From positions 92,773 to 156,772 of the forward strand of contig JALSQX010000053.1 of assembly GCA_026985075.1 (NCBI GenBank): 64,000 nt of DNA, read 5' to 3'. This stretch comes from Blastocatellia bacterium (GTDB lineage: Bacteria > Acidobacteriota > Blastocatellia > HR10 > J050). The notes under the pieces are model-generated. The model worked only from the letters and a program-made list of their open reading frames with translations. It had not been told where the DNA came from and ran no database searches. The position numbers and the translations under genes are program-made. This document shows positions 50,006-64,000 of the stretch, one piece after another. Positions within the stretch are counted from its first letter, which is position 1. The number at the start of each line of letters is the position of its first letter.

Positions 50006-51421
50006 ATGGGCAAAAGGCATCTCTCGTTTTACGAATCGGTATTAGCCTTTTTTGATCGAGCCGCCGCTCATACGTCCTATGATCGGGGACTGCTCGATCA
50101 AATCAAGTACTGCAATAGCGTGTACCAATTCAAGTTCCCGCTCAAGCACGAGGATGGGACGATCGAAATCATCCAGGCATTCCGGGTGGAGCACAGTCAT
50201 CACAAGCTGCCCGTCAAGGGGGGAATCCGCTACAGCGAGATGGTCAACGAGGATGAGATCAAAGCGTTGGCGGCATTGATGACGTTCAAATGTGCCGTCG
50301 TCGATCTCCCGTTTGGTGGCGCCAAAGGCGGCGTCAAAATCGAACCACGAAAATACACCGTCAATCAACTGGAACGCATCACCCGCCGCTACACCGCCGA
50401 ACTCGCCAAGAAGAACTTCATCGGACCTGGCGTCGACGTGCCCGCTCCGGATTACGGTACGGGACCGCGCGAGATGGCCTGGATTCTGGACACCTATCAG
50501 GCGCTCAATCCGAGTATTGATTCTATCGCCTGCGTCACCGGCAAACCGGTCACCCAGTATGGCGTCCGGGGCCGAACCGAAGCCACCGGACGCGGCGTCT
50601 TCTACGGCATTCGCCACGCCCTCAGTTATGCCGAAGACATGAAAAAGCTGGGGCTCCAGCCGGGCATCGAAGGAAAACGCGTGGTGGTGCAAGGATTGGG
50701 AAACGTCGGATATCATGCGGCGAAATTCCTCCAAGAAGCGGGAGCCCTTCTCGTCGCCGTGGCCGAATATGATGGGGCCATCTATAACCCCGATGGATTG
50801 GATGTGGACGAGGTGCAACAACATCGTCGCGAGACGGGGACGATCCTGAATTTTCCCGGTGCCAGGAATTTCGCCAGGAACACCGACGCCCTGGAATACG
50901 AATGCGATATTCTCATTCCGGCGGCTCTGGAACGGCAAATCACCGAAGAGAACGCTCCTCGCATCCGCGCCAAGATCATCGCCGAGGCCGCCAATGGACC
51001 GACGACCATCGAAGCGGAACAGATGTTGCTCGAGCGCGGCGTGATGATCATTCCCGATCTCTACCTCAATGCCGGAGGCGTCACCGTCTCCTATTTCGAA
51101 TGGTTGAAGAACTTGAGCCACGTGCGTTTCGGTCGGTTGAGCAAGCGATTCGAAGAAGCATCCCGCAGCGCCCTCCTGGAATCGATCGAGCGCATCACCG
51201 GGAAGCATCTCTCGCCGGAGGAGCGGAAACTCATCGTGCGGGGCGCCGACGAAATCGATCTGGTCAATTCCGGCCTGGAAGAAACGATGATCACCGCCTA
51301 CGATGAGATTCGCGAGACGATGCTGCGGACGCCGGGCGTGACCGATCTGCGCACCGCCGCCTTTCTCAACGCCATCAATAAGGTCGCCATTGCCTATCTG
51401 GAACTGGGCATCTTTCCATAA
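50006..51421 (+). CDS. gdhA: Glutamate dehydrogenase (Glu/Leu/Phe/Val dehydrogenase family)
   Basis: Catalytic-Lys region [15 protein letters not shown] and a Rossmann GLGNVG motif. Confidence 0.9.
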
Positions 51422-51500
51422 TGCCGCGGAGAGGGAGACGGAAACGAGCCGAGATGACGACGGAGATTCTCTCTCCCTGCGCCATTGAGGAGGTCATCTG

Positions 51501-53180
51501 ATGCGACTCGGGATACTCATCGGCAGTTTCATCCTGATCACCGCGTGCACAGCGCCCACCGAATACGACATCGTCATCCGTCACGGCACCATTTATGACG
51601 GCAGTGGATCGCCGCCCTTCATCGGCGATGTCGCCATCGACGGAGACCAGATTGTGGCCGTGGGCTCTCTGGAGCGGGCGCGTGGGCGCCTGGAGATCGA
51701 TGCCACCGGCCTGGCCGTGGCGCCCGGTTTCATCAACATGCTCAGTTGGGCCACCGAGTCGCTCATCGAAGATGGTCGCGCGCAGAGCGACATTCGCCAG
51801 GGAGTCACTCTGGAGGTGTTCGGCGAGGGATGGTCGATGGGTCCGCTGAACGAGCGGATGAAAAAAGAGCTCATCGAACAACAAGGCGACATCACATACG
51901 ATGTCCAATGGACGACGCTCGGCGAATATCTGGACTATCTGGTCAGTCGCGGCATCTCCCCCAATGTGGCTTCATTCGTCGGCGCGACCACCGTGCGCAT
52001 TCATGAGATCGGTTACGAGGATCGTCCGCCCACACCGGAGGAACTCGATCGCATGCGCCAACTCGTCCGCCAGGCCATGGAAGAGGGCGCGCTCGGCGTC
52101 GGCTCATCGCTCATCTATGCGCCGGCCTTTTATGCCCGGACCGATGAACTCATCGAACTCTGCAAAGTGGCCGCCGAGTATGGAGGCATGTACATCTCGC
52201 ACATTCGCAGCGAGGGGAATCGCTTGCTGGAAGCGGTCGATGAACTGATCACTATCGCGCGCCAGGCGCATATCCCGGCCGAGATTTACCATCTGAAGGC
52301 GGCGGGGCGATCCAACTGGAATAAACTCGATGCCGTGATCGAGAAGATCGAGGCGGCGCGCGCCGAAGGGCTCCGCATCACCGCCGACATGTACACCTAC
52401 ACGGCGGGGGCGACCGGTCTGGATGCTGCCATGCCGCCATGGGTGCAAGAAGGCGGTCTCAAAGCCTGGATCGAGCGATTGAAAGATCCGGCCATTCGCG
52501 CCCGCGTCAAACGCGAGATGCGCACGCCGACCGATGAATGGGAAAATTTGCTCCTGGCCGCGGGATCGCCGGAGAACGTCTTGCTGGTGAGCTTCAGGAA
52601 CGAAAAGTTGAAGCCGCTGACCGGAAAGACGCTGGCCGAAGTGGCCCGCCTGCGCGGCACGTCGCCGGAGGAAGCGGCTATGGATCTGGTCATCGAGGAT
52701 GAGAGCCGCGTCGGCACGGTCTATTTCATCATGTCCGAAGAGAACATCCGGAAGAAGATTCGACAACCGTGGGTCAGTTTCGGTTCGGACGCCGAAGCCC
52801 CGGCGCCGGAAGGCGTCTTCCTGAAGTCGAACCCGCATCCACGGGCATACGGGAATTTCGCTCGACTGCTCGGCAAGTACGTGCGCGAGGAGAAGATCAT
52901 CCCTCTAGAAGAAGCCATTCGACGGCTGACCTCGCTCCCGGCGGAGAATTTGAAGCTGGATCGGCGCGGGCGATTGAAGCCGGGATATTTCGCCGACATC
53001 GTCGTGTTCGATCCCGACACCATCCAGGACCACGCCACCTACGAGAATCCTCATCAGTATGCCACCGGCGTGGTGCACGTTTTCGTCAACGGCGTTCAGG
53101 TCCTCAAAGACGGCGAGCATACTGGCGCCACGCCGGGACGAGTGATTCGCGGTCCCGGATGGAAGGGGCGTCGTCAGTGA
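51501..53180 (+). CDS. Amidohydrolase-superfamily protein, D-aminoacylase (N-acyl-D-amino-acid deacylase)-like, lipoprotein signal
   Basis: Strong D-aminoacylase-family similarity (GVGSSLIYAPAFYARTDELIELCKVAAEYGGMYISHIRSEG). Lipobox LITAC. The canonical HxH and Cys metal ligands appear to be replaced. Confidence 0.75.
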   Translation: MRLGILIGSFILITACTAPTEYDIVIRHGTIYDGSGSPPFIGDVAIDGDQIVAVGSLERARGRLEIDATGLAVAPGFINMLSWATESLIEDGRAQSDIRQGVTLEVFGEGWSMGPLNERMKKELIEQQGDITYDVQWTTLGEYLDYLVSRGISPNVASFVGATTVRIHEIGYEDRPPTPEELDRMRQLVRQAMEEGALGVGSSLIYAPAFYARTDELIELCKVAAEYGGMYISHIRSEGNRLLEAVDELITIARQAHIPAEIYHLKAAGRSNWNKLDAVIEKIEAARAEGLRITADMYTYTAGATGLDAAMPPWVQEGGLKAWIERLKDPAIRARVKREMRTPTDEWENLLLAAGSPENVLLVSFRNEKLKPLTGKTLAEVARLRGTSPEEAAMDLVIEDESRVGTVYFIMSEENIRKKIRQPWVSFGSDAEAPAPEGVFLKSNPHPRAYGNFARLLGKYVREEKIIPLEEAIRRLTSLPAENLKLDRRGRLKPGYFADIVVFDPDTIQDHATYENPHQYATGVVHVFVNGVQVLKDGEHTGATPGRVIRGPGWKGRRQ

Positions 53181-53272
53181 TGTCCCGAAGCATGGTCCGC
53201 TGATCGGGTGGATGGTTTCGGCGACGACGTTTCATCCGCGGCGGTCTACTGTATGGGCTCGATGGGCATTCC

Positions 53273-54088
53273 ATGAGTGCGGCAGAGATGAACCAACGTG
53301 AGCACCTCGACACATGCTCTGGTTCAGCTCGGGATCTATTTTACTTCCGTATCAAGGGCGTCCTCGCCCGAATATTCAGTCGCCTGCGCTGTGATGTCGA
53401 AGGGCTGGAATATGTGCCTCAGAGCGGCCCGGCTATCCTGGTGATGAACCACACCGGCTGGGAAGAGATTCTCTGCGCCATCCTGATCGTACCCCGTCCG
53501 ATGAGGATTATCGGTATTCGGGAATTGATGTATCTCGATGATCCCGTGGGACGGGCGCGCATTTTTGATTCGGCGTATGGACGGAGCTTCGGCCCCGTTC
53601 GTCGTGGACTCACTGTTCTGCTGGGAAACGCGCTCGGTGGAGTGGTGCGCCGCCGGCTGCGGGAGTTCGGGTTCATTCCGGCGCGCGTATTCACACCGGC
53701 GTGGCCGCCGCTTCTGGGGAGCAACGGATGGCGCGAGACTGTAGCGGCGCTGGCGGCTGGCGAGCTCGTTCTGCTCTTTCCCGAAGGGGGGTACAAGCGA
53801 GATGGGGTGATGCGACCGTTCAAACCCGGTCTGGGGATGCTGGTGCGCTGGCTCAGCCGCCGTCATCTGGATGTTCCTATCGTGCCGATTGCACAACGGA
53901 CGGCGGGATGCGTTTCCTGGACGCTGGGCCATCGATACACGCCGCGACTCGTTTTCGGTCCGCCACTCACATTCACGTTCAATGGGGAGAACCGGCGGAC
54001 ATTCGATGAACGTGTGGCGCGCACGGTTCAGGATCACATCGATGCTCTTCTCCGTCGCGCCTGGCCCGATGCGCCGTCACAGACATAA
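53273..54088 (+). CDS. Lysophospholipid acyltransferase (PlsC/LPLAT)-family protein with HX4E variant motif
   Basis: Motif I NHTGWEE (HX4E rather than HX4D) and motif III FPEGG. Confidence 0.55.
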   Translation: MSAAEMNQREHLDTCSGSARDLFYFRIKGVLARIFSRLRCDVEGLEYVPQSGPAILVMNHTGWEEILCAILIVPRPMRIIGIRELMYLDDPVGRARIFDSAYGRSFGPVRRGLTVLLGNALGGVVRRRLREFGFIPARVFTPAWPPLLGSNGWRETVAALAAGELVLLFPEGGYKRDGVMRPFKPGLGMLVRWLSRRHLDVPIVPIAQRTAGCVSWTLGHRYTPRLVFGPPLTFTFNGENRRTFDERVARTVQDHIDALLRRAWPDAPSQT

Positions 54089-54182
54089 CGTTCGGCCGGA
54101 TTTGATCGAAGAGCTTTGGTTTTGCCCATGATGCGCTTTAGGCGTATATTTGCGTTACTGAGGTCGTGTATGTAATCGTTAG

Positions 54183-55114
54183 ATGGCATTGAAGCTGGTA
54201 GAGGCAGCTTATATGAGGCGTCCCAAATACAAGTGCCAAGATTTTCTAAATGAGCTTGCTGTGGGCCAAGCGTATGGTATTTTTGTTGATGATACTGGCG
54301 CTCCTGGTCTCACTGATGCACCAGCAAACTTCCATCCCAACCGGAAATCTTGGGTTGCCGTTCCACCATGGCACATGCCTGAAGTTCTTAAGCAGCTTCC
54401 TCGTGCACTATAGGAACTAGAAAAGCTGACAGGGGCCGGAGAGCTTCATTTTGCGGACATTTATGCAGGCCGAAGGGAATTCAGGGAAGTTGATCTCCGG
54501 GTTCGACGTGCGCTGTTTGAGTTTATGGCACATATTTTCTCAGTATATCAATTCCCTATCATTGTTCAGACCTTTGATCCGAAAACGTTATCTTATCTTC
54601 ACTCCCGTAGCCAAGGAGAATTGCCGGACCGCCTTCCGCCCTTTGATTTTACCAAGCCAGAAGACGCAGCCTTTTTTTCTTGCTGATCCGATTGAGGTTG
54701 TTTATGGAGCAAACGCCGGAGTATCCTAAAGTAAAAGCGCATGTATTCGTTGACGAAGGTTGGAAAAGCAATGGTGTTGCAATTAAAATCCCAATATTCG
54801 AAGATGTGTTCAATGATGGATTGGTCTGTTTTTGCCGGAGTTCAACTATCTTGCCTATCCAGCTTGCAGATTTTGCTGCATTCGCTCTAAATCGCACTCA
54901 GCTCGTATGTGGGCGCAACAAACGAAGCCCGTTGGATATGCATTTACTTGAGATTTTATCCAAAGTTGCGAATAACTATGTGAATATTGAGAAAAAGATT
55001 GTTTCATTAGTAGAAGAAGGTCCAATGATTACCTTGGTTGGTACGCGTCCCACGGACCTTATTAATCGCCATCTAACGCCCGCTGCAGTCAACCCGCCTC
55101 CGCCAGCGCTCTAG
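54183..55114 (+). pseudogene. Disrupted gene: one reading frame interrupted by an in-frame TAG (54411) and a frameshift at a T7 run (54672-54678); possible DUF3800-like product
   Basis: Frame 0 is open and protein-like from 54183 to 54686 apart from a single amber codon. A +1 T in the T7 tract would fuse it to the frame-2 ORF 54680-55114. Motifs IFVDDTG / VFVDEGW and IQLADFAAFA suggest the DES...QxxD signature of DUF3800. Confidence 0.4.
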
Positions 55115-55216
55115 CGGGCGGCCGAGCTGGTCGTCAGACCGTTGCTCGCAGGCTCTTCTGCGGATAGAATAACATTAGAATAATACCTGTGCTGTGTAAC
55201 AAGAGTGGACAAGGAG

Positions 55217-55444
55217 ATGAAGAGCAAAATGCAAGCTTATCGAGTCGAAACCACAGTTACCCAAGACGGTACTCTCATCATCAAAGGAGTTCCCTTTCGG
55301 GCAGGAACGAAGGTGGAAGTCATCATCCTCAGCCACTTTCGTAAAGCTGCAAAGGAAGTACGCTATCCCTTGCGAGGTAAGCCGATTCGGTATCTGGCGC
55401 CATTCGAGAGTGTTGCCGAGGATGAGTGGGAAGCACTGTCATGA
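55217..55444 (+). CDS. vapB: VapB-like antitoxin (AbrB/SpoVT-like swapped-hairpin candidate)
   Basis: Small acidic C-terminal tail (SVAEDEWEALS). The stop overlaps the vapC start (ATGA). Start uncertain among GTG 55205, ATG 55217 and ATG 55229. Confidence 0.5.
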   Translation: MKSKMQAYRVETTVTQDGTLIIKGVPFRAGTKVEVIILSHFRKAAKEVRYPLRGKPIRYLAPFESVAEDEWEALS

Positions 55445-55833
55445 TCATGCTTGACACACATATTTGGGTTTGGTGGGTGCATGGAGATTCACATCTTACC
55501 CAAACTCAAATGGAAGCAATTGCTGCACACGAGGAGGATGTGATTGGTGTGAGTGCGATTTCATGTTGGGAAATAGCTAAACTAGTCGAGTATGGTCGTC
55601 TGGAATTGCCCTGTCCACTGGAGGAATGGTTTGAACAAGCGTTGAGTTATCCCGGGATGCACTTACTCCCATTAACGCCGGAAATAGCCATTGAGTCAAC
55701 GCGGCTGCCGGGAAAATTTCATCGTGACCCTGTGGATCAAATCATCGTGGCCACGGCCAGGGTGTCCAATTGCCCACTTGTGACTTCGGATCAGAGGATT
55801 TTGAACTACCCGCACGTTGTAACGATAAGGTAA
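55441..55833 (+). CDS. vapC: PIN-domain ribonuclease toxin VapC
   Basis: MIMLDTHIWVW (Asp4 equivalent), CWEIAKL (Glu), and a third acidic residue in VTSDQRIL. Classic 4-nt overlap with the antitoxin. Confidence 0.8.
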   Translation: MIMLDTHIWVWWVHGDSHLTQTQMEAIAAHEEDVIGVSAISCWEIAKLVEYGRLELPCPLEEWFEQALSYPGMHLLPLTPEIAIESTRLPGKFHRDPVDQIIVATARVSNCPLVTSDQRILNYPHVVTIR

Positions 55834-56182
55834 TCTGCCTAACATCGCGTGTAGCAGACTCACTGTGCTCAGTTGCCTGACTCCCCTGCTGGCACGCCAC
55901 TGATGCTCACAGCAGGCGGAGCAGCCCCTACTATGGATTGAGAAACGTGGTTGCCAATCATTGAGCTTCCAGGCTTTAAGCCTAGAAGCTGGTGAATTAT
56001 TCCTGCGGCCGAAAAATCGATGGTTCGATGAAGAAAAACAACCACGCCCGCCTGACTACCGCAATGGGACATGCCATTGGACGGTTAGCCGAGGTTTTGA
56101 ACTCAATTTCTCCTCTTCACTCTCATCAAGCGATTCGAAGACGAACTACGTAGCCGCGTCAGTCATCAATGGGGATTCGCTT

Positions 56183-57463
56183 TCATCGCCATGCGGCCAG
56201 CGCCGTACGAACGCGACGCCGTTCGCCCACCTCCGTCCACGCGATCACTATCTGAGATCCCGATCGTACCATGCGGGGAAAACCGCTGGCGCGCGACGAG
56301 ACCAATCCGACGGCTCGGACCGGTTCGCTTTGCTCCCCATCGGGAGCGACGCGCCGTATGAATAATCCAGCCTCGCCTCTCTCCTCCTCGGCTTCCATCC
56401 AACTCACTAACGCCGATCCATCATCCAGCATCACCGCATCCACTCGACCCAGCGGCGCGCCTCGATCGACCCTCACGGGCGGAGCGAACGTCCGCCCGCC
56501 ATCAGAAGAAAAAGCGACCTCGACGCGCCTCTTCCCATCCGCTGCCGTGAACCAGGCGACGACCACGCGCTCTCCTCGGGCATCAATAGACGGTCCATTC
56601 ACTGGACAGGCGGGGATTCGCCAACCATCACTATGAACCGGTCGCGGCGCGCTCCACGTTCCTCTTTCGTACCGAACGACGAAAATATCTCGCACCTCCT
56701 GCGGCGAGCGATCGCGATATACGATCAACGCTCGATCTTCGGTCAGCCGAACGGCCGACGTCTGGCAACAGTCGCAGACCAGATCATCGACGAGCATCTC
56801 AGGTCCCCACGTCCCATCGAACCTCAACAGCCGCGCGCGCAATGTCATCTCTTGCTTTCCTGCGGCGAACCGACGTCCATCGAGCCAGACGGCGAGCCAC
56901 TCTCCCCGACGCATCGGTAATAGAGAGACGAAGCCATGTTCGGTCGGCGTCCCATCTTCATGAAGCTTCTTCGGTCGAGTCCAGGTTCGACCACCATCGG
57001 TGGAATGACTCACCATGATCCCGTAGGCATAGGGCTGTCCTCCCGTCCGCACGAGCCAATGAGCGATCAACCGACCATCTTCGCCGACGGCGAGAGACGG
57101 AAAATCGGCCCAATTGACGAACCAGTTTTCGCCCTCGGCAATGGTGTGCGGCGCCGACCAGGCGTCCGCTCCAGGCCTATAGGTGGCGAATCGCAGCGCC
57201 TCTCGCCCCTCATCGCCCGATTCGATCCAGCAGATATACACAACGCCATCCGGCCCCGTGGTGAGATTGGGCTCGCCACTTCCTGGCGCTGACCGAAGGT
57301 CGAGCGCACGAAACGATAAAGAGAAGCCGGGATCATCGATCTCCGACACCTGGACGCATCCGGATGAACTCGCCAGGATCATGAAACCGAACATCCCAAT
57401 GCCGATCCAACCGAACAGGTCAACCAGCACAGAGACGCCAGCAAGCGTACATCGTCGTCGCAT
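56183..57463 (-). CDS. BNR/Asp-box repeat (sialidase-like beta-propeller) lipoprotein
   Basis: Asp-box repeats SHSTDGGRTW and AFSSDGGRTF. Lipobox LASSSGC after ATG 57463, which is preceded by GGAGG. Confidence 0.65.
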   Translation of the reverse strand: MRRRCTLAGVSVLVDLFGWIGIGMFGFMILASSSGCVQVSEIDDPGFSLSFRALDLRSAPGSGEPNLTTGPDGVVYICWIESGDEGREALRFATYRPGADAWSAPHTIAEGENWFVNWADFPSLAVGEDGRLIAHWLVRTGGQPYAYGIMVSHSTDGGRTWTRPKKLHEDGTPTEHGFVSLLPMRRGEWLAVWLDGRRFAAGKQEMTLRARLLRFDGTWGPEMLVDDLVCDCCQTSAVRLTEDRALIVYRDRSPQEVRDIFVVRYERGTWSAPRPVHSDGWRIPACPVNGPSIDARGERVVVAWFTAADGKRRVEVAFSSDGGRTFAPPVRVDRGAPLGRVDAVMLDDGSALVSWMEAEEERGEAGLFIRRVAPDGEQSEPVRAVGLVSSRASGFPRMVRSGSQIVIAWTEVGERRRVRTALAAWR

Positions 57464-57480
57464 GCCATCCTCCACATCTC

Positions 57481-58617
57481 TCAACCGGCGGCTCCGCGGC
57501 CCATCACCTTCCGAAATGCCTGCGCGAAAAGCTCCATCTCCTCCATCGTTCCCAAACTCAGTCGACACCAATTGGTGTATGGTGGGAAGGGTCGCCCGAC
57601 GAGCACGCCGTGCTCTTTCATCGCTTGGCGAAATGCCGTCACCTCTCGTCCGAGATGAAAGAAGACGAAATTCGTCTGCGAGGGGATGTACCGGCGACCG
57701 AGTTCGCCGAGAACCCTGTAGAGATACGTTCGGGCTTCGGCATTCTTTCGACGACTGAAGTCCTGAAACGACGCATCCTGATAGCTGGCAATCGCGGCCC
57801 GCAACCCGAGAATGTTTACGCTGTGATTGGTTCGAAACTGGCCGAGACGGGCGATGATGTCCGGACGAGCCAATCCATACCCGACGCGCAATCCGGCCAG
57901 CGCATGAATCTTGGAGAACGTGCGCGAGACGATCACGTTGTATCCTTCCCGAACCAGATCGATCATCGACGCATATTCTCTCGCCTGGACATAATCGTGA
58001 TAGGCCTCATCGACGAGAACGACCGTTCGGCGCGATATGGCCCGGCAGAACTCACGCAGTTGATCTCCAGGGAGAATTCTTCCGGTGGGATTATTGGGGT
58101 TACAGACGAACACCAACCGCACGGCTTGCGTGATGCGCCGATCCATGGCATCGAGATCGATCTGGAAATCAGCGGTGAGCGGGACGCGATGCACGTAAGC
58201 GCCAATCGTGCGGGCATAATGTTCCAACCCCTCATAGGTCGGATAGGCCGTCAATACCTCTCCTCCTTCCAGGCCGTAGGCTACGCCAGCCATGCGAAGG
58301 ATCTCGTGCGAACCAGCGCCCAAGATGACGTGATCCGGTGAGACGCCCTCTTTCTCAGCGATGAGCCTCTTCAATTCCTCATAATGACCGGAGGGATAGC
58401 GACATCCTTCATCGAAAGCGGTGATCATGGCGCACCGCGCGCGGCGAGAAGGACCATATGGGTTCTCGTTACTATGGAGCCGGATGAACGGCTGGTCGCG
58501 CTCGGGCGATGGCGGAGCGATCCATTCGGCGCCGGAGACATCCCGCCGAACCGCCAGGCTGGCCGCGGCCACAGCACTCACTTTCAACCATTGGCGACGA
58601 TTCATCGGGAGTTTCAT
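57481..58617 (-). CDS. Tat-signal-bearing PLP-dependent aminotransferase (HisC-like, class I/II)
   Basis: Twin-arginine motif NRRQWLKVSAVAAASLA. Aminotransferase class I/II similarity, including a candidate PLP-Lys (SRTFSKIHALAG, Lys assigned from sequence only). Confidence 0.8.
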   Translation of the reverse strand: MKLPMNRRQWLKVSAVAAASLAVRRDVSGAEWIAPPSPERDQPFIRLHSNENPYGPSRRARCAMITAFDEGCRYPSGHYEELKRLIAEKEGVSPDHVILGAGSHEILRMAGVAYGLEGGEVLTAYPTYEGLEHYARTIGAYVHRVPLTADFQIDLDAMDRRITQAVRLVFVCNPNNPTGRILPGDQLREFCRAISRRTVVLVDEAYHDYVQAREYASMIDLVREGYNVIVSRTFSKIHALAGLRVGYGLARPDIIARLGQFRTNHSVNILGLRAAIASYQDASFQDFSRRKNAEARTYLYRVLGELGRRYIPSQTNFVFFHLGREVTAFRQAMKEHGVLVGRPFPPYTNWCRLSLGTMEEMELFAQAFRKVMGRGAAG

Positions 58618-58997
58618 CGGGGACCTCCTGAGATGGGCTGTCGGTACGACTGGCTAAGCTACCAAAAACCCGGAGAGAACGCAAGCGGAGAAGACTCGTT
58701 CAGAACGACGACGAGGGGTGGGAGTCCCGGAGAGGGGCGCTCCAAGGCGCCAACTCTCTCCCACGCTGAGGAATGCCGTGAGCCAGGAAGCGAACCCTAT
58801 GGTCTGTAGGGAAATGCATCGCATGCCTCATCGAGACGCCTCATCACTGGAGAGGCATGACGCGCCACGGCCCGCTCCTCCATCTGCAGACCAGAACTCG
58901 GTGGCGACGAGCAGGCTTCATCGACCTCCGCTCTCGGTGCCGATGAGCGCTCTTTGACCGGATTGATCTCCTCTGGAAGTGTGGCATAATAGTGCCT

Positions 58998-59783
58998 ATG
59001 CCGAAACAGATCGCCGTCGGAGATCAAATACTGCTCTACTCCCCGGATCGGAAGACGTTTCTCATCACGGTGGCCGCCGATCGCACGTTCTCGACGCACC
59101 ATGGTCAATTGCTCCATAATGACATGATCGGCAAGCTCTACGGCGAGATCGTTCACAGCTCGACCGGCCAGCCCTATGTGATGCTCGACCCCACGTTGGA
59201 AGATCGCATGATGAAGGTCAAACGCCTGACCCAGATCATCTATCCCAAGGACGCCGGGCTCATCCTGATCAAGACGGGCGTCGGATCGGGGATGCGGGTC
59301 GTCGAATGTGGCGCGGGCTCGGGCGCGTCGACGTTGGCTCTGGCGCACGCCGTGGCTCCCGACGGCCGCGTTTATGTCTACGACCGGGAAGAGCGCTTCC
59401 TGCGAAATGCGCAAGCCAATGTCGAGCGAGCGGGCTACGGAGATCTGGTGGAATTCAAGATCAGAGATGTCGTCGAGGGATTCGATGAACAAGACGTTGA
59501 CGTCGTCCTGTTGGATCTTCCATCGCCCTGGGAAGGCGTGGAGGCGGCCACTCGAGCGCTCCGTGGCGGCGGGCGCCTCGCCTCCATCCTGCCCACCTAT
59601 AACCAGGTCGAGCGCCTGGTCGAGGCACTGGAGGCCGCCGGGTTCGTCATGATCGAAACGTTAGAAGTCCTGCTTCGCCACATTCTCGCCCGACCGGGCA
59701 AGACGCGACCGTTCGAGCGCATGATCGGTCATACGGGATTTTTGATTTTCGGACGAAAAGCCTTATGGCCTTCGCCCGAGTGA
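58998..59783 (+). CDS. trmI: tRNA (adenine58-N1)-methyltransferase TrmI (GCD14 family)
   Basis: GCD14-family N-terminal domain and SAM motif VVECGAGSGASTLALA. Confidence 0.8.
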   Translation: MPKQIAVGDQILLYSPDRKTFLITVAADRTFSTHHGQLLHNDMIGKLYGEIVHSSTGQPYVMLDPTLEDRMMKVKRLTQIIYPKDAGLILIKTGVGSGMRVVECGAGSGASTLALAHAVAPDGRVYVYDREERFLRNAQANVERAGYGDLVEFKIRDVVEGFDEQDVDVVLLDLPSPWEGVEAATRALRGGGRLASILPTYNQVERLVEALEAAGFVMIETLEVLLRHILARPGKTRPFERMIGHTGFLIFGRKALWPSPE

Positions 59784-59808
59784 ATCCCTCCGAGAAGACC
59801 TCGACATA

Positions 59809-59845
59809 CCCATCACATGGACCCGAACCCATGTGGTCTGATGGG
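59809..59845 (+). terminator. Candidate terminator hairpin after trmI
   Basis: CCCATCACATGG-acccgaac-CCATGTG(gtc)TGATGGG, followed by GGCTGATCTTTCG. Confidence 0.35.
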
Positions 59846-60211
59846 GGCTGATCTTTCGCATACTCATTCGCTCACATTATTAAAAACGCCTTGATTGCGG
59901 CTCTGTTCAGGCATTGCACGCCGGCAGCGAGCGCAACTTTATAAACTGGCGTGATCAGAACGGCAGCGCTTTTGACATCATTTGAGGGGACGACGACTCG
60001 GACGAAGAGCTGTCTTTCCGCCATCGAATGCTCGACAAGCATCGCTGGACGCCGTTCGGCAGGGGCGGCGATGACTCGAAAAGCGGGTGACTCAGCGATA
60101 GCCACACGTTGGGCTTACGAGGGGCCCGTATTGAGGAGAGGCCGGGCTCAACAGTGGCTCGTTCTCACCGCCTCAGCAGACAAGCGAGCATACAGATCGC
60201 TCGGGTTGAGG

Positions 60212-60664
60212 CTATCCGTGGGTCCCCGTCCAACGCTGTCCTGGCGGCGAGCCGCCTTCCAGATCTCGTCGAATCGCGTCCAGTAACCCATTGATGAACT
60301 GCGTCGCTTCATATGTCGAATATCGTCGAGCGATCTCGATCGCTTCATCGATGACCACAACCTTGGGCGTCTCGGGCTCGTGAAGCATCTCATACACGGC
60401 AATGCGCAAGATGTTCCGATCCACGGACGCCATGCGCGGCAACCGCCAGTGAATGGCATGCTCGGAAATGATCCGATCGATCTCCTCCAGGTGCTCCAAC
60501 GCTCCGGTGACCAGACGCGTGGCATAGCGCCGCACGCTCTCATCGGCATTCGGTCGCAGATGCTGCCAGTAGGTTTCAAATAACTCGTCGATCGGCTGCC
60601 GGGCGAACTCGTACTGATACAACAACTGCATGGCCGATTCTCGCGCTTTTCGTCTCGAGCCCAT
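60212..60664 (-). CDS. nusB: Transcription antitermination factor NusB
   Basis: ARESAMQLLYQYEF...VDRNILRIAVYEML. Start taken at the downstream ATG (60664) rather than the track's 60745. Confidence 0.85.
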   Translation of the reverse strand: MGSRRKARESAMQLLYQYEFARQPIDELFETYWQHLRPNADESVRRYATRLVTGALEHLEEIDRIISEHAIHWRLPRMASVDRNILRIAVYEMLHEPETPKVVVIDEAIEIARRYSTYEATQFINGLLDAIRRDLEGGSPPGQRWTGTHG

Positions 60665-60762
60665 AGCCTTTAACTCGATGAGCCGGAAACGATGAACGAT
60701 GCCCGATCGAGGCACGCAAAACCTCGATGACCACTCATCGCTCATCGGGTGAGCTCACCCGA

Positions 60763-61545
60763 TCACTTTCCCTGAAAGCGAGCCTTCCTCTTCTCCAAGA
60801 AAGCCCGCATGCCCTCGCGCATATCCTCGGTCGTACAGCACAAGCCGAACAGCGTCGCCTCATACGGCATGGCCTCATCCTGAGGCATCTCCATCCCGTG
60901 ATGGACGGCCTCCATGGCGAAGCGAACGGCCAGCGGCGCATTGGCCATGATCTGCCGGGCGATTCTCTCTGCTGTCGGCATCAGCTCCTCTGGCGACGTG
61001 ACATGATTGACCAGACCGATGCGATGAGCTTCCTCGGCCGAGATCATCTCTCCGGTCAGAATCAATTCCATCGCCCGTCCTTTCCCCACCAGGCGAGGTA
61101 ACCGCTGCGTCCCGCCATATCCGGGGATGATGCCGAGCTTCACCTCGGGCTGTCCCAGCTTGGCGTTCTCCGAAGCGATACGCAGCGTGCAGGCCATCGC
61201 CAATTCGCATCCACCGCCCAAGGCATATCCGTTAATCGCCGCGATGACCGGTTTACCCAATCGCTCGATGAGATTCAAGACGTCCTGTCCATACTGAGAA
61301 CGAGTCTTGCCTTCGACCGGCGTTTGCACCGACAGTTCGTGAATATCGGCACCGGCGACGAAGGCCTTCTCGCCCGCTCCCGTCAAGATGACGACCTTCA
61401 CCTCATCGTCGTCGGCGATGCGGGTGAACACCTGGCGGAGTTCCCTCATCACTCGATCATTCAACGCATTGAGCTTGTCCGGACGATTGATGGTCACGTA
61501 TCCGATGCCTTCGCGCTTCTCAAAGAGCACGTATTCGTCGCTCAT
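60763..61545 (-). CDS. Enoyl-CoA hydratase (crotonase family)
   Basis: Oxyanion-hole segments VILTGAGEKAFVAGADI and AINGYALGGGCELAMA. Confidence 0.85.
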   Translation of the reverse strand: MSDEYVLFEKREGIGYVTINRPDKLNALNDRVMRELRQVFTRIADDDEVKVVILTGAGEKAFVAGADIHELSVQTPVEGKTRSQYGQDVLNLIERLGKPVIAAINGYALGGGCELAMACTLRIASENAKLGQPEVKLGIIPGYGGTQRLPRLVGKGRAMELILTGEMISAEEAHRIGLVNHVTSPEELMPTAERIARQIMANAPLAVRFAMEAVHHGMEMPQDEAMPYEATLFGLCCTTEDMREGMRAFLEKRKARFQGK

Positions 61546-61622
61546 AGGTCCTCCTCCACAACGGTCACCTTGTAATGAGTCCCGGTCTCCCTCCGGGCTC
61601 CCGGTTTCCGCGCGCCCGGCAT

Positions 61623-62513
61623 TTAAACGAGGTTCATCGGTTTCGGGTTCTCGGGATCGCTGTAATCATAAAATCCCTTCCCCGTCTTCCGCCCATAGAG
61701 TCCGGCCAGGACCATCCGCTTCAACAAGGGGGGCGGAGCGAAACGCTTCTCTTTGAACTCATCGAACATGATATTGGCGATGTAGTACGTGGTATCGAGC
61801 CCCACGAAGTCGAGCAAGGTGAACGGACCCATGGGATGACCGCAACCGAGCTTCATGCCGTTATCGATATCCACGATCGATCCCACCCCCTCTTCCAATG
61901 CCCGGATGGCATCGAGCAAATAGGGGACCAGCAGGCGGTTGACGATGAACCCGGTGCGATCGCTCGTCTGCACCGGCACCTTGCCTAACCGACGCGCAAA
62001 GTCGGTCACCGTCTCAAAGACGGCCTCATCGGTCAAGATGGTTCGCACGACCTCGACGAGCTTCATGAGTGGGACGGGATTGAAAAAGTGCAGTCCCACG
62101 AACCGTGGCTGACGCGCCGGCTTGGTGCTGGCCATCATTTCGGTGATGGAGAGCGAGGAGGTATTGCTGGCGAAGATCGTCTCCGGAGAACAGATCTCAT
62201 CGAGCTGGGCATAGGTTTTCAATTTCTCTTGTAAGTTTTCGATGATAGCTTCGATGACAATATCACAGTCGGCGAACGCGTCCAGCTCGGTCGTTCCCCG
62301 CAAGCGCCCCTGGATCTCCTCCTTCTGCTCGGGCGTCAGTTTTCCTTTCTGCACGAATTTGGAGAGCGATTGATCGATGCGCGCCAAGCCTTTTTGCAGG
62401 AGTTCGTCACTGATCTCGCGAACCACCGTCTCGCATCCGGCTGTGGCGGCCACCTGGGCGATGCCCGACCCCATCAGGCCACAACCGACAACGCCTACTT
62501 TCTTGATCTCCAT
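61623..62513 (-). CDS. 3-hydroxyacyl-CoA (3-hydroxybutyryl-CoA) dehydrogenase
   Basis: NAD motif KVGVVGCGLMGSGIAQV and the HFFNPVP signature. ATG 62513 is preceded by GGAGG. Confidence 0.85.
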   Translation of the reverse strand: MEIKKVGVVGCGLMGSGIAQVAATAGCETVVREISDELLQKGLARIDQSLSKFVQKGKLTPEQKEEIQGRLRGTTELDAFADCDIVIEAIIENLQEKLKTYAQLDEICSPETIFASNTSSLSITEMMASTKPARQPRFVGLHFFNPVPLMKLVEVVRTILTDEAVFETVTDFARRLGKVPVQTSDRTGFIVNRLLVPYLLDAIRALEEGVGSIVDIDNGMKLGCGHPMGPFTLLDFVGLDTTYYIANIMFDEFKEKRFAPPPLLKRMVLAGLYGRKTGKGFYDYSDPENPKPMNLV

Positions 62514-62634
62514 AAGAACACCTCCTTCACCATTGAGAAACGTGTGAGGACGACAACCGTCCTCTCCCATGAAGCTGATTTCCGATTCACCGGATCAGCG
62601 CGTTCATCATGAGACAGACGCTCGCTATCTCTGA

Positions 62635-63819
62635 TCACGAAAATGCTTCTACGATCATCGCAATTCCCTGACCGCCCCCAATGCAGGCAGTGGCCAGCCC
62701 ATACGTCTTGCGCCGCCGCCGCAATTCCAGCAGCAGTGTGAGCACCAATCGCGTGCCGGTCGCACCCAATGGATGACCGAGGGCTATGGCTCCTCCATTG
62801 ACATTGGTTCGCTGGCGATCGAGGCCCAATTCTCTCTCCACGGCCAGGTACTGGGCCGCAAACGCCTCGTTGACCTCGATGAGATCCATATCATCGAGGG
62901 TGAGACCGGCTCGCTTCAGCGCCAGGCGCGTGGCCGGCACCGGCCCGATCCCCATGATCTCCGGTTCGACGGCCGCGACGCCCCAAGAGACGATGCGGCC
63001 GAGCGGTTGGGCCCCGCGCCTCTCGGCCACTTTCTCGTGAGCGATGACCAGAGCGGCGCCTCCATCGACGATCCCGGAGGCATTGCCCGCCGTGACCGTC
63101 CCATCTTCGGAGAAGGCGGGCTTCAACCTGGCCAGCGCCTCCAACGTCGTATCAGGCCGCATGTGATCGTCCTCATCGAAAAGCTCCTTCCCCTTCTTCG
63201 TCGTGATTTCCACCGGCACGATCTCTTCGGCGAATCGGCCGGCAACACGAGCGGCGGCAGCCCGCTGCTGGCTGAGCAGAGCGAATTGGTCCTGCTCCTC
63301 GCGACTGATCTCATATCGCCGCGCCAGATTCTCTGCCGTTTGTGCCATATAATAGCCGCAATATTCGTCCTTCAACGCTGCCAGGAGCGCATCTTCCAGG
63401 GGAGCGTTCCCCAATCGCCATCCCCACCGCACGCCGCGAATGACGTGCGGCGCTTGAGACATCGATTCCATCCCTCCAGCGAGCACGACTTCGGCCTCGC
63501 CGAGCATGATCATGTGAGCGCCACTGATGATGGATTGTATGCCCGAGCCACATAATCGATTCACGACGAGCGCCGGTCGGTCGACGGGGATGCCAGCTTG
63601 AAGGCCAACATGACGGGCACTATAGATGGCGTTGCTTGATGCTTGAATGACATTACCCATGACTACGTGGTCGATGTCTTCCGGCGCGACTCCGGCGCGC
63701 TCCATGGCCGCGCGGGCGGCGATGGTACCCAGTTCGATCTCAGTGAACTCGCGAAGCTTGCCGGCATACTCTCCCATCGGCGTTCGCGCTCCGCCCAAGA
63801 AGACGATTCCTGGTGTCAT
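62635..63819 (-). CDS. Acetyl-CoA C-acetyltransferase (thiolase II)
   Basis: Cys-acyl site [11 protein letters not shown]-terminal His/Cys motifs ([17 protein letters not shown]; CIGGGQG). Confidence 0.9.
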
Positions 63820-64000
63820 TGGTGACCCCCTTCGTCATCGAATGAGATAACAAGTTATCGTACTCGCTCGCCTTGAGCAAGCCCGCTCTCAACGTCCGAA
63901 GTCTTCTCGCCCGGGATCGGACCCCGGCCAGGAAGCGCCCACCCGACGTTGCTCGCCGCCAGCCACCACCGAGTGGAGACGCCGGCCGATGAGGACGGGG

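Follow-up and report, generated by a model that had tools for sequence, protein, structure and literature searches.

Elements in which attC sites occur apart from an integron integrase have been described under the terms SALIN (single attC site lacking an integron integrase) and CALIN (cluster of attC sites lacking an integron integrase) (Cury et al. 2016, PMC4889954; Loot et al. 2023, bioRxiv 10.1101/2022.09.11.507474), and toxin-antitoxin (TA) pairs are known as cassettes of chromosomal integrons (Richard et al. 2024, PMC13108822). Proteins of the DUF3800 family, whose hallmarks are an N-terminal acidic DE and a C-terminal QxxD (PMC7736814), are encoded by genes that have been associated with unexplained noncoding RNA (ncRNA) motifs (PMC5737381). 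Here we analyse an interrupted DUF3800 gene in a 64-kb stretch of contig JALSQX010000053.1 from a Blastocatellia bacterium (the window, whose own coordinates are used throughout). The initial annotation had described a gene broken by an in-frame amber codon and a frameshift at a run of seven T, with a possibly DUF3800-like product, and had named a pseudogene and a slippage-regulated gene as the two alternatives. We consider it very probable that the locus is an ordinary DUF3800 pseudogene on a decaying single-gene integron cassette and not a switchable gene; that the gene is an integron cassette, as its boundary sequences indicate, had been overlooked.

The locus resembles SALIN and CALIN elements (PMC4889954) in having a single open reading frame (ORF) with a G|TTRRRY core at its 5' boundary, a same-strand attC hairpin with R''/L''/L'/R' boxes, no integrase within 4 kb, housekeeping flanks, an atypical GC content and an adjacent TA module. 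It differs from them in that its R' core reads GTC and its cassette gene is a pseudogene, and its one detectable attC fits a SALIN, not a CALIN. As with the TA cassettes of chromosomal integrons (PMC13108822), an intact VapBC-type pair lies behind the cassette and is followed by attC-like R''/L'' sequence, whereas the window has no array or integrase for it to regulate. The clade to which the gene belongs shares with known DUF3800 proteins the QxxD motif (QLAD), an acidic motif on the first beta-strand and a Pfam score above the gathering threshold, and its predicted fold recovers the same templates, 3puf_A and 1eke, as that of the retron DUF3800 protein (PMC7736814). Unlike them, its members are stand-alone proteins of about 286 aa carried on cassettes, the window copy is a pseudogene, the acidic motif reads DD(T/S)G and not DE, and no retron reverse transcriptase, Cas gene or tetratricopeptide repeat domain lies beside the clade in the contigs examined.

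Lesions of the DUF3800 gene

The frame described in the initial annotation is present as reported: ATG 54183 opens a frame that runs across a TAG (54411-54413) as far as TGA 54684-54686, exactly seven T occupy 54672-54678, and one base added there fuses the upstream frame with the ORF ending at 55114, giving a protein of about 310 aa that contains IFVDDTG and IQLADFAAFA. The ancestral protein had 286 aa and both another start and another stop. Translation of the ancestral gene started at ATG 54213 (MRRPKYK..., with AGAGG before it), while ATG 54183 sits in the cassette-boundary core GTTAGATGG, embedded as GTTAG[ATG]GC, and the 10 extra N-terminal residues that it would supply have no counterpart in 13 of 16 aligned homologues, the other three having short unrelated extensions. 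The stop was TAA 55063-55065, and the tail running to 55114 is out of frame after a second frameshift.

We called lesions from a protein alignment and from DNA alignments with the genes of two intact relatives, P0001 (contig L001) and P0002 (contig L004), and with the copy of Pyrinomonas methylaliphatogenes K22 (contig L008); comparison with the intact homologues gives each change its polarity (Table 1). Both lesions already known, the TAG and the frameshift at the T7 run, are real, but two coding and two non-coding lesions had been overlooked. The 6-bp deletion costs the gene the Val-Ile of core beta-strand 2 (strand E45-52 in the AlphaFold2 model), of which the Val is kept in 118 of 119 intact relatives, and the TAG falls in a family column that is variable (Q/E/K/Y/H). 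At the first frameshift the T7 run is ancestral and the change is most parsimoniously the loss of a C from the adjacent C run: restoring a C brings back Leu156, invariant in the 119 relatives, where an added T would give Phe. One base restored at the second frameshift yields ...TRPHGPY followed directly by the ancestral TAA, matching the C-termini of the homologues. Outside the coding sequence (CDS), 8 bp that DNA alignments show in L001, L004 and L008 are missing from the leader, between 54194 and 54195, and the attC core has been altered (see below). The locus has no intact ORF spanning the whole DUF3800 domain; no full-length product is possible, and no single slippage event restores one. 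Of the two alternatives first named, the pseudogene is thus the one that the lesions bear out.

Table 1. Coordinates of features at the locus in the window
Feature	Position	Strand	Remarks
Low-GC island	54100..56150	.	43-53% G+C in 300-bp windows vs 56-64% elsewhere; sole such stretch in window
5' boundary, attC R'-type core GTTAGAT (GTTRRRY)	54178..54184	+	recombination point between G54178 and T54179
Cassette 5' leader	54185..54212	+	Shine-Dalgarno-like AGAGG 54200-54204
DUF3800-family pseudogene	54213..55065	+	ancestral CDS of 286 codons + TAA; 6-bp deletion, nonsense codon, two -1 frameshifts
In-frame 6-bp deletion	between 54358..54359	+	homologues TGGGTTGC[TGTTAT]CGTTCC (alignments)
Premature TAG	54411..54413	+	P0001 CAG (Gln); P0002 GAG (Glu)
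C2T7 tract, first -1 frameshift	54670..54678	+	intact P0001 has C3T7 (GCC CTT TTT TTC, Leu-Phe-Phe)
Second -1 frameshift	~55048..55051	+	homologues ACGCG-A/G-CCCC-ACGG; window ACGCG-T-CCC-ACGG
Cassette attC	55067..55143	+	R'' ATCTAAC 55071-55077; R' GTCAGAC 55133-55139; match of covariance model R1
Antitoxin-like gene, 75 aa	55217..55444	+	ATGA overlap with PIN gene; first gene of probable former cassette
Intact VapC (PIN-domain) toxin gene, 130 aa	55441..55833	+	Pfam PIN, 65 bits
Degenerate attC remnant after VapC	55837..55906	+	R''-type GCCTAAC 55837-55843, L''-like arm, stem

The proposed DUF3800 assignment held. Against Pfam DUF3800 (PF12686; cutoff 21) the repaired protein of 310 aa reaches 21.7 bits (E 3.5e-4), a cutoff that each of the three unrepaired fragments misses when taken alone. 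PF12686 is also the one Pfam family matched by every one of the 119 intact relatives (best E 6e-9). Because the Pfam margin is narrow, the window clade is, on its sequence, best taken as a divergent DUF3800 subfamily. When intact homologues were sought, as the initial annotation had proposed, the repaired protein returned 199, almost all of 265-300 aa and uninterrupted, the best being P0001 (81% identity, E 7e-152, 289 aa). Of the DES...QxxD signature suggested for the product, the QxxD is there, as QLAD, with Q219 and D222 invariant in the family, but the N-terminal motif is F-x-D-D-T/S-G, with an invariant D26 and with a D, not an E, in second place.

Relaxed constraint on the window lineage

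The window lineage has also accumulated amino-acid changes faster than its intact relatives. Nei-Gojobori branch estimates over 280 codons give a nonsynonymous divergence (dN) of 0.064, a synonymous divergence (dS) of 0.295 and a ratio of the two (omega) of 0.22 for the window lineage, as against dN 0.023, dS 0.304 and omega 0.08 for the intact sister P0001. In Tajima relative-rate tests the window lineage carries 26-34 unique amino-acid changes and the intact sister(s) 10 (p 0.0003-0.012 with P0004/P0002 as outgroups, 0.012-0.034 with the distant P0019), while the two intact sisters show no significant difference from each other. At 83 columns conserved in the family the window copy deviates 7 times (family median 2, maximum 11), one of these deviations being L101R in a predicted helix. 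If neutral omega is about 1, roughly 15% of the branch would postdate inactivation. Because the invariant acidic candidate catalytic residues are still there (D26, E79, D124 and D183; Q219 and D222 are likewise retained), the alignment indicates a fairly young pseudogene.

Cassette boundaries and attC site

On its 5' side the gene is bounded by GTTAGAT (54178-54184), which is exactly complementary to the R'' box of the cassette itself, ATCTAAC. The junction GTTAGATGGC(A/G)(T/C)TGAAGC is also found before the gene in L001, L004 and L008, there forming the end of an upstream attC, and nucleotide homology to L001 and L004 runs from 54175/54176 through 55103, past the gene in either direction. The upstream attC of L001 and L004 ends in …GTTAGAT directly followed by GGC… before the gene, and the gene's own attC, ATCTAAC…GTTAGGC, comes after it.

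To the 3' side lies a site recognisable by sequence and structure. A covariance model, R1, was derived from 8 attC sites that lie in other contigs; on these sites its structure is 86% paired (slid controls, 25-39%), with compensatory changes at 7 pairs. Applied to both strands of the whole window with filters off, R1 gave one significant match, 55067-55143 (+), at 25.5 bits and E 4.3e-5, the next-best match having an E of 0.12; the E-values are rough, coming from a shortened calibration, but the gap to noise is clear. By blastn the site is 80% identical to an L001 attC over 66 nt (E 9e-9). Its core departs from GTT at 55135, where the window reads GTC and the aligned homologues read GTTAGGC, and the R1 alignment marks the A·C mispair that the GTC causes. 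The GTT/AAC triplet is the near-invariant cleavage core of attC sites. Because the GTT has become GTC, the window site is probably non-recombinogenic and the cassette immobilised, and because the R' core is mutated a strict attC scan (RYYYAAC…GTTRRRY plus a stem) finds no site in the window, as opposed to 5 in L001 and at least 2 in L004.

Recombination of attC sites proceeds through the bottom strand, and folding of the window site and of the L001 and L004 sites agrees with this. The bottom strand of the window attC folds at -16.7 kcal/mol, and unconstrained folding of the top strands of attC candidates gave poor z-scores, the bottom strands folding better. We also observed that the bottom strand is predicted to be 0.7-9 kcal/mol more stable than the top for the window site and for 6 of 7 canonical 59-77-nt sites of L001 and L004; a 133-nt L001 site (1996-2128) and a doubtful match in L014 are exceptions.

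Homologous copies lie inside cassette arrays. L001 is an array of small same-strand genes that include BrnT and ParE-like genes, and R1 run on 100 further family loci found 26 distinct attC sites. All of these share the strand of the gene, and 9 lie directly behind it, no more than about 60 nt from its stop codon. The K22 copy, 76% identical, sits in an array with at least nine same-strand attC sites (E down to 6e-13); it is broken by other lesions, having lost its 3' third and, through a 22-bp deletion, the codons for FVDDTG, and is by this comparison a case of independent decay. No integrase was found in the 20.6-kb K22 locus. As a further observation, the K22 array spans 1300-16100 of L008 (NZ_CBXV010000006.1), and its cassette genes include a DinB-family gene and a methyltransferase gene. 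In L027 (P0004; 9919-10889, GCA_053488235.1) the DUF3800 gene is intact and stands beside Fur/ZnuABC housekeeping genes, between vestigial attC sites (upstream ACCTAAC-28 nt-GTTAGAT, downstream a collapsed GTCTAAA-CAATA-GTTAGGC); a Phd/PIN_3 pair comes next, giving the gene order seen in the window. Judged from these contigs, the DUF3800 clade is recurrently carried on integron cassettes in environmental bacteria, namely Acidobacteriota and metagenomes. Among the papers searched, none connects DUF3800 with integrons, and the link is a minor addition to known cassette diversity.

Alternative explanations of the broken frame

In a phase-variable gene, slippage in the T7 run during replication or transcription would toggle the DUF3800 protein, and several features invite such a reading: the run lies exactly at the frame change, it is the sole T run of seven or more in the 64-kb window, and one added base mends that junction. 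A mononucleotide run at a frame change is indeed what the locus has in common with homopolymer contingency genes. It differs from them in that the run is short, ancestral and unchanged, the shift coming from the neighbouring C run, and in that irreversible lesions lie elsewhere in the gene. The intact gene of P0001 has the same T7, a T8 allele would put Phe at the invariant Leu, and with the TAG, the 6-bp deletion and the second frameshift still blocking a full-length product, tract length alone does not toggle an intact ORF. T runs at this site in the relatives are T6 or less, or interrupted, the T7 is found in two assemblies, and the window lineage has an accelerated rate of amino-acid change; we regard phase variation as highly improbable. 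Programmed recoding, in which the TAG would be read through or decoded (by pyrrolysine or a suppressor) and a frameshift at T7 would complete a functional protein, we hold to be next to impossible. T-rich heptamers can promote ribosomal or transcriptional slippage and one is present here, and TAG is the rarest stop in the window, terminating 2 of 40 long ORFs. Against this, the 119 intact relatives in the alignment can all be read at both sites without recoding, and no recoding signal is conserved among them; the TAG column is variable and holds no conserved special residue; the second frameshift, at the non-slippery CGTCCCAC, would also need to be bypassed; two core residues are deleted; and the K22 copy is broken by other lesions.

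Gene fission, with one piece (for instance the 66-aa N-terminal peptide or the 136-aa ORF of the C-terminal part, 54704-55114) still being made and serving a function, is improbable as well. The C-terminal ORF was called as a gene in L029, a second assembly described below, and it keeps QLAD and scores 19.4 bits against DUF3800 by itself. Missing from it, however, are the invariant D26, E79 and D124 (as numbered in P0001) and half of the sheet of the RNase H-like fold; the frameshift turns its C-terminal end into sequence without homology that runs over the attC, and no fragment-length homologue occurs among the 120 best matches listed. A sequencing or assembly artefact, the gene being intact in the organism and the stop and frameshifts being errors such as homopolymer miscalls, would fit the fact that both frameshifts are single-base losses in short homopolymers (C3 to C2 and C4 to C3), as is typical of some long-read platforms. 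The initial annotation had itself raised assembly error, but the Logan assembly of run SRR7968113 (L029) matches window 51325-59180 at 100.000%, with 0 mismatches in 7,856 bp. A TAG substitution and deletions of 6 and 8 bp are atypical as read errors, and sequencing error would not produce the excess of amino-acid substitutions or the mutated attC core. The 14 other window genes with Pfam matches have nearly full-length profile alignments (for example TsaD 2-263/264, IF-2B-like 2-280/280, ECH 1-250/251, and a thiolase), with no split genes noticed, and the assembly is therefore not generally frameshift-prone. Taken with these observations, an artefact seems quite improbable.

Several points nevertheless weigh against a DUF3800 pseudogene on a decaying cassette as we describe it. 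L029 may share reads with the genome of the window, so that a systematic error at the two short C runs is possible, which is the chief caveat left. The N-terminal acidic pair is, in the sequence, DD and not the DE of the Pfam description; PADLOC gives no defence match for the DUF3800 protein; and metal-dependent nuclease activity of the clade is presumed only from the modelled fold and the conserved carboxylates. The left flank (54089-54177) carries no attC or attI signature by folding or model R1. The assignment of VapBC to a second cassette, which we call probable, is drawn from a partial R''/L'' motif, one attC being statistically detectable. Finally, no relative of the source strain with an empty site or an intact allele was found.

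Proposed history and significance

We propose that the cassette once encoded a 286-aa DUF3800 protein with a type-2 RNase H-like fold, presumably a nuclease, and that the acidobacterium would have acquired it horizontally together with the VapBC module behind it. Insertion may have been integrase-mediated at a secondary genomic site, or else the rest of the integron has since been lost. Selection on the nuclease gene would then have lapsed. The CDS gained the 6-bp deletion in a core strand, the CAG to TAG change and the two single-base deletions in short C runs, while the leader lost 8 bp and the attC core went from GTT to GTC, a change expected to immobilise the cassette.

In annotation, labels such as two hypothetical proteins or a phase-variable gene should give way to that of a pseudogene inside an integron cassette that has degraded. 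The element adds one more case to a known kind and will not surprise specialists, yet it offers a well-resolved case of a cassette stranded without an integrase, in which the cargo and the attC core erode beside an intact TA pair. The intact P0001 and P0002 are candidates for functional tests.

Predicted fold and function of the intact relatives

The AlphaFold2 model of P0001 is of high confidence (predicted local distance difference test, pLDDT, 92.6; predicted template modelling score, pTM, 0.92). Its predicted fold is RNase H-like and closest to RNase H2/HII/HIII; the top four Foldseek matches of the model are likewise these enzymes, with modest E-values (6.5e-3 to 4.4e-2). Intact members would, on this model, carry out metal-dependent cleavage of nucleic acid, possibly of an RNA/DNA hybrid or a structured RNA, through the family's conserved D/E/D/D carboxylates. 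Rfam found no DUF3800-I to XI motif or other RNA family near the locus, and NCBIfam gave no match for the DUF3800 protein.

A more speculative idea, which we put forward tentatively and think more likely wrong than right, is that the clade is an unrecognised integron-borne, single-gene RNase H-like nuclease module that serves anti-phage or anti-plasmid defence or acts as a toxic effector, its cost or toxicity in new hosts driving recurrent inactivation. This is consistent with the service of other DUF3800 proteins in retrons and CRISPR systems. Two independent decays, in the window and in K22, have been seen, always with TA cassettes; elsewhere, TA genes beside the DUF3800 cassette comprise BrnT and a ParE-like gene (L001), Phd/PIN (L027) and BrnT (L028).

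Neighbouring VapBC module and genomic context

The VapC gene behind the cassette has more than 5000 homologues, and among the matches listed nearly all are of 130 aa with 98-100% query coverage. One of the homologues is a 130-aa VapC of 100% identity, although look-ups by exact sequence gave no record for VapC or for the acyltransferase (53273-54088), probably through a difference in indexing or gene calling; the look-up of the amidohydrolase did give one. The antitoxin-like partner of VapC has counterparts in L111 and L113, in the form of conserved genes of 71-75 aa placed ahead of the VapC relatives. The remnant after VapC has no recognisable GTT R' box and is undetected by model R1, and the sequence CTGCC(T/C)AAC-AyCCGC that marks it also follows VapC in L111, L112 and L113. 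A TAGAAT -10-like box upstream of the VapBC pair is common to the relative L113. The intact TA module may help the island to persist.

The island has an acyltransferase gene on one side and a BNR-repeat gene on the other, and the flanking genes also include those for an amidohydrolase and an aminotransferase. No tRNA gene was found in this context, no tyrosine recombinase was present among the 20 integrase-sized or smaller window ORFs scanned, and no integrase occurs within 4 kb, nor does the window contain the adjacent intI and attI of a complete integron. As a CALIN has at least two detectable clustered attC sites and no integrase, and one significant attC was detected here, the island is most aptly called a SALIN-type element or else a CALIN of two cassettes in a degraded state.

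Two observations concern the BNR-repeat side of the island. A sister-strain contig (L030; Logan ERR14788038) is 98% identical to the window over 57196-64000, and at L030 9860-10278 (window ~57196) it diverges abruptly, inside the BNR-repeat gene, into unrelated sequence of lower GC content, which suggests an insertion or rearrangement in that gene; L030 ends before the island, so the sister strain provides no empty site. Between the island and the convergent BNR gene sits a near-perfect palindrome (55964-55990; AGCTTCCAGGCTT A AAGCCTAGAAGCT) with 13-nt arms that are 92% complementary and a 1-nt loop, which may be a bidirectional terminator or a feature of the island's end.
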